IMG/VR virus record: IMGVR_UViG_2531839193_000016
Length of the DNA stretch: 64,000 bases
Direction: 5' to 3' (one strand)
Origin: a virus
Taxonomy: Duplodnaviria; Heunggongvirae; Uroviricota; Caudoviricetes
This document shows, in pieces, positions 6,001-9,000 of this stretch (position 1 is its first letter; every line of letters begins with the position of its first letter). A program made the position numbers.

Positions 6001-9000
6001 CCATGAAAGAAGGCGTGCCCCAGTTTGTGATGGCGTATATCGACATTCGCCTGGGTGTCATCATCTGCGGTTTAAGCGGCTGGAATATCACCGCGCGTGT
6101 TCTGCGCTACCTGATTGTTGACCGGACAGCAGCGCCTGCCGGGATATCTGCGGAGGTGGCGTAATGTTCTTTAAAACATCAAACCCTTCCGCGCTGGCTG
6201 CGTGGCAAAAATACCAGCAGGACTGCCAGACGGTAAAAGATGAGGCGAAACGCCTTGAGGCCGTGCTGAATGTTGCGTGCCGGTCGGTATTTGAATTCAG
6301 TATCAGTGGTTTTTGTTTTAAGGGACTGCGTTTTACGGAGGACAAATATCCTTTTCATCGCGACTTATGGCGAAAACCGACTGCGTCGAATGGCTGGAGC
6401 TGCACACCGCGCACATCACGTATCCCTAAAGCCCTGCGTGTTGCCTCTGATGAACTGAACAGTCTGTGGCGTGAATATTCGCCCGTCACGTATGCCAGAA
6501 CCGATGCCCTGTTGTTCTGGCTGGGTATTGACTTCTCAGCAATATTGTATGGTCCCGTGAACTGGTTCTGCGTTGACAATGTGATTTATCTTCAGTGCGA
6601 AGATGATTCCGCAAAACGGAAAATGACCGAAATTCTGTCTGATGAGTTTTATGCTGCCGAAAAGCGAGTCAGGGGGTGATGTATGATGATTTTACAACAC
6701 ATGGGGCGAAAAGGTCGTACACCCGCTCATGTCCGCGCGTGGACACCTGAAGAAGATGCGCTGCTGATTGCGCTTTATTCATCCACCCCGGTTAAGGATA
6801 TTGCTGCCAGAATAAAAAGAACTGTCTGGGCTGTATATAACCGGACTGGTGTATTGCGCAGTTCATACCCGGAGTTACTGAAATATAAACACCCAAGATT
6901 TACACCTGATGAAGATAAGTTTATTCGAAAAAATGCCAGAACAATGACCTGCCAGCAAATGGGAGAATATCTCGGACGTAATAAAGATTCTGTCAGATGT
7001 CGGGCAGGAATGATTGGTGCTGGATTAACAAAGTGCGGAGAGTTACGCCCCGGCACGCGCATATCTGATGATGATGTACGTCTTATACGTGCGCTGCGTG
7101 ATTCCGATTACCCACGCCGTCTGTCATTCCGGGAAATTGGCGAAAAGTTTGGAATATCTGAACATTCTGCTCACGCAGTTTATTACCGTCGCCGGACTGC
7201 CGAGGACGCTGTATTACGGGAGTTAACGCCATGATAACGACCTTATTTGTTGAATCAGATGAACCTCTTGTGTGTGCCGCCGGAATGCCGCTCTGTGGCG
7301 GAACGCTGACCGGTGTTTATTTCGGGGATTTACGCGGTTATCCCTGGCATTCACTGAATGATGCTTTCCCACCTGATATGGAGGCTGTCGTGCTGATTGT
7401 TCAGTATGGTCACCGTCAGGAGCTGCGCATCGGCCATATGGGGTATGAAGGCTTTTTTGTTGATGAAGAAACCGGAGCCTGCCTTGAAGATGAAGACGGA
7501 CAGGTGACGCACTGGTGTCATATTTCGGCTTTACCGGAATTACGGGAGGTGAATGCGTGAGAAGTTATATTGATAATGAAAAGCTGGAGACAATAAGCGA
7601 CTGTCTTAGCTTGCTGGCAAAAATCAAAGAAACTATTGAAGAGATTAAATTTCAGCTTGAATACGCACCATGTGGCGATGATGCATGGCGTAATGCTGCC
7701 AGAAAAGCACTGGCTGTCTTTCAGAAACAACGCCGGGCTGTTGAATACCGCCTTGCTGTATTGCGCCAGGAGGAAAAGGAAAGAAATATAAGACGTCATG
7801 AACGCGTTAATGATTTCCTTGTTCGTGAATTAAAAGAGCGCGTGCCGGAGTCGGTATTTTTTGAATGTGAGGCTATAGCCCGTAGCAAAGCACTGGAAAC
7901 AGATTAAGCAGGCAGGTGAATAATGAGTATTGAATTAAGATCGTCTTATGAATATCGCAAAATCCTTATCGCCGGAGGCATGAAACCGGAAGATGCAGAG
8001 AAATTCGTTTCTTTTATGGATAAAGAATGTGACAAGCGGGATATGCCAGAAATTATTATGGATGACATGATTCTGGATTCAGCCGTGGCGTTAAGTTCGT
8101 TATGGATTGTGCATACTCTTGCGGAAATAGCTAAAAGAAGTGACAAGCAGGCGGCTGTCGCCGCCCTGCGATTACTGGCTGAATTAAGTTGTTCAGTCAA
8201 TCCCAATACGTTCTTTGACGAACCTGGTTAACATTGATTTGGTAACTTCTTTAATTAGATCAAATGGTGCGTCTGTAAACTCCTTTTTGATTCTTTCAAG
8301 GATTGGTTTTTTTCTCAGGGCGTTAGCTAAATCATGCCCCTGCTGGGTAAGCATAATGGGCGTGTTTCTGAAACCAACGCCCAGAGAATGGAAAAAGAAA
8401 CCAATATATTTGGGTGTTTCTGACTGCATATCACCATTAACAATTGAGCCATTATCAGCGAGAAGCATAAGATGAAAAACTTTTTTATCCTTTTCCTCTC
8501 CTTCTGCCTCAGCCATGCCCAGATCCTGTAGTGTAAGGAAAGGTGTTTCAGCATCCTGAAAAGTTGTGAGAATACTTAATACTTCATCGTAATCTATTTT
8601 CATATCGATACCTTTAGTTTTATCCGGGCGGCGTTGCCATGCCGCCTGTTGTTACGGAGACACGATAATGAATCGCGCTTCCCTGATTACCTTAATACAT
8701 GTCGCAAAACGCGATCTACAGCTTGACCATGAGACCTACACATCCGTACTACTGGCAGCCACCGGCAAACCCAGTTGCCGGGATATGTCACCGGATGAGT
8801 TATCCCGCGTGCTGGATGTTTTCAAAAAACGCGGTTTTAAAGTGCGTCAGAAGCCGGTTAACCGGGCCTTAAAACCGGGGACGGTGACCGCCAAAATTCG
8901 CGCCATCTGGAAAGTGATGCACCGGCAGGGCTTTATCGCTGATGGCGGGGAAAACGCCATTAACCGCTGGGTGAAATCGCAGACGGCCGCGCAGAACGGC

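Follow-up and report, generated by a model that had tools for sequence, protein, structure and literature searches.

Tandem helix-turn-helix (HTH) repeats of about 50 amino acids (aa) make up the R2R3 region of c-Myb (PDB 1H88, 1MSE), where each repeat consists of three helices and opens with the motif W-T-x-E-E-D. The archaeal proteins Cbp1 (three repeats) and Cbp2 (two; PDB 2LVS) are small, basic and made of imperfect Myb/Pax-like HTH repeats alone, and the two repeats of Cbp2, together with a basic linker of ~15 aa, read a site of ~25 bp (PMC3597662). Caulobacter GcrA (PDB 5YIU) combines one HTH with a C-terminal sigma-70-binding domain and is a cofactor of sigma-70 with a preference for methylated promoters (PMC4647560, PMC5887438). 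Phage Mu encodes gp9, a protein of only two such repeats, in its semi-essential early region. Here we describe a gene (6683-7234, + strand) in a window of 64,000 nucleotides (nt), the stretch of the caudoviricete IMG/VR record IMGVR_UViG_2531839193_000016 that was analysed as a whole. The element is, judging by its sequence, a Mu-like prophage of Escherichia coli, and the window begins at the transposase gene. The open reading frame (ORF), which the first-pass annotation had delimited exactly, runs from an ATG at 6683 to a TGA at 7232-7234 and is a conserved gene; its 183-aa product, predicted to be a DNA-binding accessory protein, is a routine case from a phage family that is widespread and already catalogued.

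The protein is built of three repeats (R1 to R3) spaced by 53 and 54 aa, giving a unit of ~53 aa, and linkers of 13-18 residues lead from the third helix of one repeat to the first helix of the next. Within the single sequence, the similarity between repeats lies near chance (5000 shuffles; p = 0.017 for R1-R2, 0.057 for R2-R3 and 0.54 for R1-R3). When the repeats were compared as profile slices of an alignment of 31 full-length orthologues, ranging from 97% down to 30% identity, the three pairs scored 70.3 (R1-R2), 32.7 (R2-R3) and 27.5 (R1-R3), with hhalign probabilities of 98.8%, 93.5% and 86.5%, respectively. The column-shuffled null had a mean of ~8.7, a standard deviation of ~2 and a maximum of 20, and none of 150 shuffles reached the score of any observed pair. 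By these profile-profile tests, which are decisive, the three repeats are mutually homologous, and the internal repetition noticed on first inspection holds despite its weakness in a single sequence. It had further been claimed that every repeat opens with W/F-T-P-E/D-E-D; this is true of R1 (WTPEED) and R2 (FTPDED), whereas R3 (ISDDDV) keeps the acidic run only.

The HTH fold anticipated in the first-pass annotation is also what structure prediction returns. AlphaFold2 models three three-helix bundles followed by a C-terminal helix (residues 173-181), with a mean predicted local distance difference test score (pLDDT) of 78.8 when 12 sequences were supplied and of 89.2 (predicted template modelling score 0.63) with 31 sequences. 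The predicted architecture is that of the Myb/SANT fold, a repeat of ~50 aa with three helices of which the second and third form the HTH. Among PDB structures, the Foldseek list is headed by multi-HTH DNA binders, namely the Myb repeats of SNAPc4, Cbp2 (rank 2), Tc3, Mos1, Pax5 and Reb1.

Profile searches point to Myb as well. The Pfam model Myb_DNA-binding (PF00249) matches the protein at 25.2 bits against a gathering cut-off of 24.4 (E = 1.7e-5), which is a narrow margin, and the homologue P0024 scores exactly 24.4 bits. Run against the sequences of the PDB, the family profile reached c-Myb R2R3 at E = 1.2e-4, with R1 and R2 lying in register with c-Myb R2 and R3 (profile positions 19-106 on c-Myb 60-149), and Cbp2 (2LVS) at E = 8e-3. 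A repeat-unit profile, built from R1, R2 and the units of multi-repeat homologues, matched c-Myb (E = 3.2e-10), Trichomonas Myb3 (2.8e-8), Cbp2 (2.1e-7), GcrA (2e-3 to 7e-3) and RcsB (5e-3). The proposed Myb/SANT-like identity is thus borne out, albeit without the full tryptophan triad of canonical Myb repeats: only the first aromatic position is kept (W20, which is invariant, F73 and I127), the second falls inside a 2-residue deletion relative to c-Myb, and the alignment stops short of the third. 'Myb-like (homeodomain-like) HTH repeats' is therefore an accurate description and 'canonical Myb' is not. The protein further differs from c-Myb in its longer linkers, in the nature of its third repeat and in its prokaryotic/viral origin.

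The best Pfam scores of R3 are all below threshold. They involve an AsnC-type HTH (19.8 bits, cut-off 27) and Sigma70_r4 (12.1 bits, cut-off 24.1), so that the relationship to sigma-70 region 4 considered at the outset is not supported; HTH_10 and other HTH models likewise match R3 below threshold. On these scores, R3 is a more generic HTH. Membership of the AsnC/Lrp family fails, since the HTH score lies under the cut-off, Pfam gives no AsnC_trans_reg match and a ligand-binding (RAM) domain is missing. The RefSeq name 'AsnC family protein', borne by many copies, rests on the sub-threshold match of R3 and is a misnomer, and the comparison made here corrects it. Public names for the family are in fact inconsistent, as 'SANT/Myb-like DNA-binding domain-containing protein', 'AsnC family protein' and 'winged helix-turn-helix domain-containing protein' are all in use. 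Neither NCBIfam (including HTH_Cbp1) nor the PADLOC profiles of anti-phage defence systems yielded a match to the protein. The Pfam results for it contain no nuclease family, and its orthologues of ~180 aa consist of the three repeats only.

The family itself is already catalogued as PHROG 323 ('transcriptional regulator, D5-like'), which matches residues 5-182 of the protein at E = 5.8e-52, on positions 82-256 of a 319-position profile; the name records an annotated and not a tested function, and its 'D5' is presumably gene D5 of phage T5. Mu gp9 (E8, NP_050613, 99 aa) falls into the same PHROG (E = 5.2e-29) and aligns with R2 and R3 at a probability of 98.3% (E = 1.6e-14), the first repeat of gp9 corresponding to R2 and the second to R3. 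Each is the product of a transposable phage and is encoded in its semi-essential early region. However, gp9 is devoid of R1, of the N-terminal motif, of the K.GD linker and of the C-terminal tail (Table 1), and its gene lies upstream of gam, whereas the gene described here follows gp12. Mu has no three-repeat gene, and no separate gp9 gene was found in the window or in the related loci. Mu gp13, which occupies the equivalent position, was considered as a counterpart and rejected, as it is an unrelated Cys-rich protein of 60 aa.

An exhaustive profile search retrieved 8154 proteins at E<=1e-3. Besides the ~180-aa orthologues and proteins of two repeats, they include long proteins of prokaryotic or metagenomic origin in which as many as 9-11 units follow each other with a period of 50-54 aa. 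The BFVD database holds many phage multi-HTH proteins of this type, several of them from phage Goslar. That this architecture should be out of the ordinary for an early gene of a phage is not supported, in view of PHROG 323, Mu gp9, the BFVD proteins, the homologues in P2-like phages described below and the SANT/Myb-like name already given in RefSeq. What is new is the link to Mu gp9, the dual distribution over Mu-like and P2-like phages, the behaviour of the gene as an allele cassette and its pattern of conservation, and not a new kind of system. The three-repeat protein found in Mu-like prophages of E. coli, Mu gp9 and the genes in P2-like operons make up one family of modular HTH-array proteins, and this link offers a testable handle, be it a DNA site or a protein partner, on the semi-essential early genes of Mu.

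Conservation, expressed as mean BLOSUM pair scores over 26 non-redundant orthologues, is unevenly distributed along the protein. The third helix is the least conserved helix in every repeat (1.03, 0.36 and 0.74 in R1, R2 and R3), and R3 is the most conserved repeat, its helices 1 and 2 scoring 3.09 and 2.95 (D.DV.LIR.LRD and F.EI..KF). Also among the best-conserved parts are the C-terminal tail, the K.GD linker and the N-terminal motif with the WT that follows it. Mu-like prophages of E. coli carry two alleles of the gene, at least 95% and ~72% identical at the aa level to the copy in the window, within flanks that are mostly ~86-100% identical. Between the alleles the synonymous divergence (dS) amounts to 0.57-0.61 in the gene and to 0.11-0.24 in flanking genes, and this excess indicates exchange of an old allele as a cassette rather than local acceleration. 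The ratio of nonsynonymous to synonymous divergence (dN/dS) is 0.25-0.28 overall; the third helices, at 0.54-0.56 against 0.17-0.20 elsewhere, evolve ~3 times faster. These values argue that the gene as a whole is under purifying selection and that its putative recognition helices evolve under relaxed constraint or diversify; third helices that are both fast-evolving and poorly conserved fit a divergence of DNA specificity.

The genomic contexts of the family were compared in 64 IMG/VR loci and one Citrobacter genome locus, found with the 12-sequence alignment; the latter, from Citrobacter murliniae, is the single locus that the scan of genome contigs returned. About 46 loci are Mu-like early regions, typically with the order gp11-like gene, gp12-like gene, Myb-like gene, one of two alternative genes, GemA and Mor. 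Another 17 are P2-like early operons, with full-length homologues. Eight of these have the homologue between a Dam-type methyltransferase gene, which ends 360-570 nt earlier, and the replication gene gpA, which follows after no more than 12 nt; the identity is 46% in seven of the eight and 41% in the remaining one. In seven others the homologue shares 40-41% identity, is without the N-terminal motif, and is separated by 18-51 nt from Dam upstream and by 12 nt from a Dcm-type methyltransferase gene downstream. Dam is accordingly found upstream in 15 of the 17 P2-like loci and is absent from two, and the P2-like phage Shae_phiSM carries a homologue without Dam. The window contains no Dam or Dcm homologue. 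Because the IMG/VR loci are not independent samples, the linkage to methyltransferases is a lead and not a result, and this neighbourhood may reflect function or the mere sharing of a slot for accessory genes. The module as such is exchangeable: the early operons of Mu-like and P2-like phages carry it as a cassette, with either two or three repeats and with recognition helices that evolve fast.

The same repeats are also present in mycobacteriophages of cluster J, as part of an HNH endonuclease that interrupts a Dcm gene; tblastn matches cover residues 12-118 of the E. coli prophage protein. In Mycobacterium phage Bombitas (gp109-gp110, L068 2004-3887) and in other cluster-J phages, the gene of a Dcm-type methyltransferase is split. 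In gp109, Myb-like repeats come after the N-terminal half of Dcm (positions 2-168 of the 329-position model), and related phages give these repeats the annotation HNH endonuclease; gp110 is a short 'DNA methyltransferase'. The whole split looks like the insertion of a homing endonuclease. A fusion of repeats and methyltransferase in these phages was considered and rejected, since the repeats belong to the HNH endonuclease insertion that splits Dcm.

The protein is most likely an exchangeable, sequence-specific DNA-binding accessory regulator, a reading that we hold with slightly better than even confidence and within which we infer DNA binding, the length of the site, the regulatory role and the target. 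As a small basic accessory protein made from the long early transcript of the prophage, it would bind double-stranded DNA and place the third helix of each HTH domain in successive major grooves, on the model of c-Myb R2R3, Pax, Tc3 and Cbp1/Cbp2. The recognised sequence, either extended and asymmetric or composed of direct repeats, would span ~20-30 bp. Once bound, the protein would influence transcription, or some other process acting on phage or host DNA, early in lytic growth, and DNA specificity would diverge between phage lineages. A role in regulating host or phage promoters, as suggested in the first-pass annotation, is plausible. Such a role is backed by the homology of the repeats, the predicted bundles, the profile matches to Myb, Cbp2 and GcrA, the basic character of the protein (isoelectric point 10.0), PHROG 323 and gp9, and further by the use of the same repeats in HNH homing endonucleases, the conserved position in early operons, the evolution of the third helices and the precedent of Cbp2. 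The resemblance to Cbp1 and Cbp2 is nevertheless remote at the level of the repeat, and the protein differs from both in belonging to a bacterial host and a phage early operon and in not being associated with CRISPR.

Several observations weigh against a regulator of this kind. No binding site was identified, no de novo search for sites having been made, and a k-mer association would be uninterpretable because there is no prior on the site and the prophages are strongly linked. Foldseek gave no significant match between the whole chain and any PDB entry (best E = 0.035), so that the arrangement of the domains relative to one another is without a solved counterpart. SANT-type domains frequently bind proteins and not DNA, and the best-conserved surfaces of the protein lie outside the recognition helices, which a conserved protein partner would fit equally well. 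Finally, a literature search returned nothing on the protein, Mu gp9 or their close homologues, and hence no experimental datum.

A first alternative, which we consider unlikely, is that the domains, the N- and C-terminal motifs and R3 mainly bind a host protein, for example sigma-70 or RNA polymerase. The protein would then act as a GcrA-like polymerase cofactor or adaptor that redirects host transcription in early phage development, and methylation of adenine or cytosine might affect any contact with DNA, as it does for Caulobacter GcrA. The repeat-unit profile does reach GcrA, the multi-repeat homologue P0063 matches the Pfam GcrA model (PF07750) at E = 2.6e-8, and the position of the best-conserved parts outside the recognition helices and the Dam and Dcm neighbours in P2-like phages would suit such a function, for which GcrA sets the precedent of a sigma-70 cofactor favouring methylated promoters (PMC4647560, PMC5887438). 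The protein itself, however, has no match to that Pfam model at E<=10 and, unlike GcrA, ends 13 residues past its last HTH, leaving no counterpart of the C-terminal sigma-70-interacting domain. Moreover, neither the phage in the window (Dam or Dcm) nor Shae_phiSM (Dam) has the methyltransferase neighbours, the P2-like accessory region upstream of gpA may simply gather such genes, and the non-independence of the IMG/VR loci applies here too. A bolder version, to which we assign only a slim chance, is that the 183-aa protein and Mu gp9 are phage counterparts of GcrA. The invariant surfaces of R3 and of the two termini would attach them to a conserved protein of the host, RNA polymerase or another, while the third helices would read phage-specific, possibly methylated DNA. 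If true, it would explain both the tight placement between orphan Dam and Dcm methyltransferases in P2-like phages and the allele swaps among otherwise identical Mu-like prophages.

A further alternative is a DNA-binding module of homing endonucleases, an HTH array that would earlier have directed a nuclease to its target and would now persist, as a stand-alone remnant or trans-acting helper, in the form of a selfish or neutral cassette or as a protector or marker of a homing site. The match of residues 12-118 to the HNH genes that split Dcm, weak PHROG matches to HNH and endonuclease families, BFVD matches to proteins named 'Endonuclease' and the cassette-like excess of dS over the flanks are compatible with this origin. 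We nonetheless find it improbable: no nuclease domain occurs in the protein or in any ~180-aa orthologue, orthologues of 97% down to 30% identity retain the full length, selection is purifying (dN/dS ~0.25), family-specific motifs beyond the HTH cores are conserved, and the position in early operons is fixed. We are similarly sceptical of an accessory role in replication or transposition, in which the protein would bind near the phage ends, the enhancer or an origin, or would organise DNA for MuA/MuB or P2 gpA. It could account for the location of the gene at most 12 nt upstream of that of the replication initiator gpA in eight P2-like loci, for the early operon shared with A, B and gam in Mu-like phages, and for structural neighbours that include the bipartite HTH domains of the Tc3 and Mos1 transposases and the terminator protein Reb1. 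The semi-essential early region of Mu is dispensable for transposition, though, and the presence of the same protein in phages with unrelated modes of replication argues against a mechanism-specific task.

In the prophage, the gene is preceded by homologues of Mu gp11 and gp12 (Table 1). The gp11 homologue matches Pfam Gp11_C (E = 4.6e-40) and is 67% identical to Mu gp11, and the gp12 homologue is 52% identical to Mu gp12 (both by tblastn of Mu proteins); as they lie directly upstream, the gene belongs to the semi-essential early region, in the position of Mu gp13/gp14. The stop codon of the upstream gene (6677-6679) is separated from the start by 3 nt, and the ATGA overlap with the downstream gene (7231-7560) indicates translational coupling inside the early operon. 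DNA that is 99.8% identical is present in E. coli chromosomes, ~200 of 5426 complete genomes having a match, and is annotated in RefSeq as 'SANT/Myb-like DNA-binding domain-containing protein'. In NZ_CP116067 the order of genes is Mu transposase, AAA ATPase (MuB), small hypothetical genes, Gam, three hypothetical genes, the Myb-like gene, hypothetical genes, gp16/GemA, Mor and lysozyme. The Gam gene is on the + strand.

Table 1. Features of the three-repeat gene and its product, and loci used for comparison. Positions refer to the window unless a locus is named.
Feature	Position	Strand	Basis or context
Coding sequence, three-repeat Myb-like HTH protein (RefSeq WP_000973019 family)	6683..7234	+	ORF call, PHROG 323, homologues
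Ribosome-binding site AGGGGG, ATG 6 nt downstream	6671..6676	+	sequence reading
N-terminal conserved motif, aa 1-18, consensus.M.L.PMG.PG..P.H.R	6683..6736	+	conservation; predicted non-helical, pLDDT 62-74
Repeat 1, aa 17-61; WTPEED (20-25); helices 22-31, 37-44, 48-61	6731..6865	+	hhalign, c-Myb R2 alignment, AlphaFold2
Repeat 2, aa 70-112; FTPDED (73-78); helices 75-84, 90-97, 101-110	6890..7018	+	hhalign, c-Myb R3 alignment, AlphaFold2
Linker K-C-G-E between repeats 2 and 3 (family K.GD; K117 and G119 invariant)	7031..7042	+	31-sequence alignment, conservation
Repeat 3, aa 124-170; ISDDDV (127-132); helices 129-140, 149-156, 160-169	7052..7192	+	hhalign, AlphaFold2
C-terminal tail, aa 171-183, family R.TA.D...RE.LP; helix 173-181	7193..7231	+	alignment, conservation, AlphaFold2
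ATGA stop/start overlap with downstream gene	7231..7234	+	sequence, ORFs
Upstream context: Mu gp11 homologue 5631-6164, gp12 homologue 6164-6679	5631..6679	+	Pfam, tblastn, Mu annotation
Loci compared for alleles with window 6683-7234	L022-L042, e.g. L023 7842-8393, L038 10001-10552		
Dam / Myb-like / Dcm / gpA operon, gaps 12-51 nt	L056 4993-9969, also L058-L063		P2-like loci
Myb-like gene between Dam and gpA	L046 5749-10416, also L047-L053		P2-like loci

The prophage is mosaic relative to Mu (window 1-2091 and 9251-9673). Its transposase shares only 22% identity with MuA, compared with 48% for MuB, 57% for Gam, 67% for gp11 and 52% for gp12, and the product of the gene annotated as Mor shares more identity with Mu C, at 40%, than with Mu Mor, at 28%. 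At 8193-8603 (- strand), just upstream of GemA, a 136-aa ORF belonging to PHROG 585, with a sub-threshold match to Pfam DUF2513, runs opposite to an otherwise unidirectional early operon; in the near-identical prophage of NZ_CP116067 this place is taken by a different, shorter minus-strand gene.

Among the prokaryotic or metagenomic homologues, P0023 (623 aa), P0035 (797 aa), P0027 (807 aa) and others carry arrays of up to 9-11 Myb-like units with a period of 46-54 aa. In P0035, from a metagenome-assembled genome of Propionibacteriaceae, the 50-aa units are nearly identical to each other, and in P0027 the array is joined to an N-terminal helicase (ResIII + Helicase_C). It is conceivable that such long Myb-like arrays serve as modular DNA-reading arrays.

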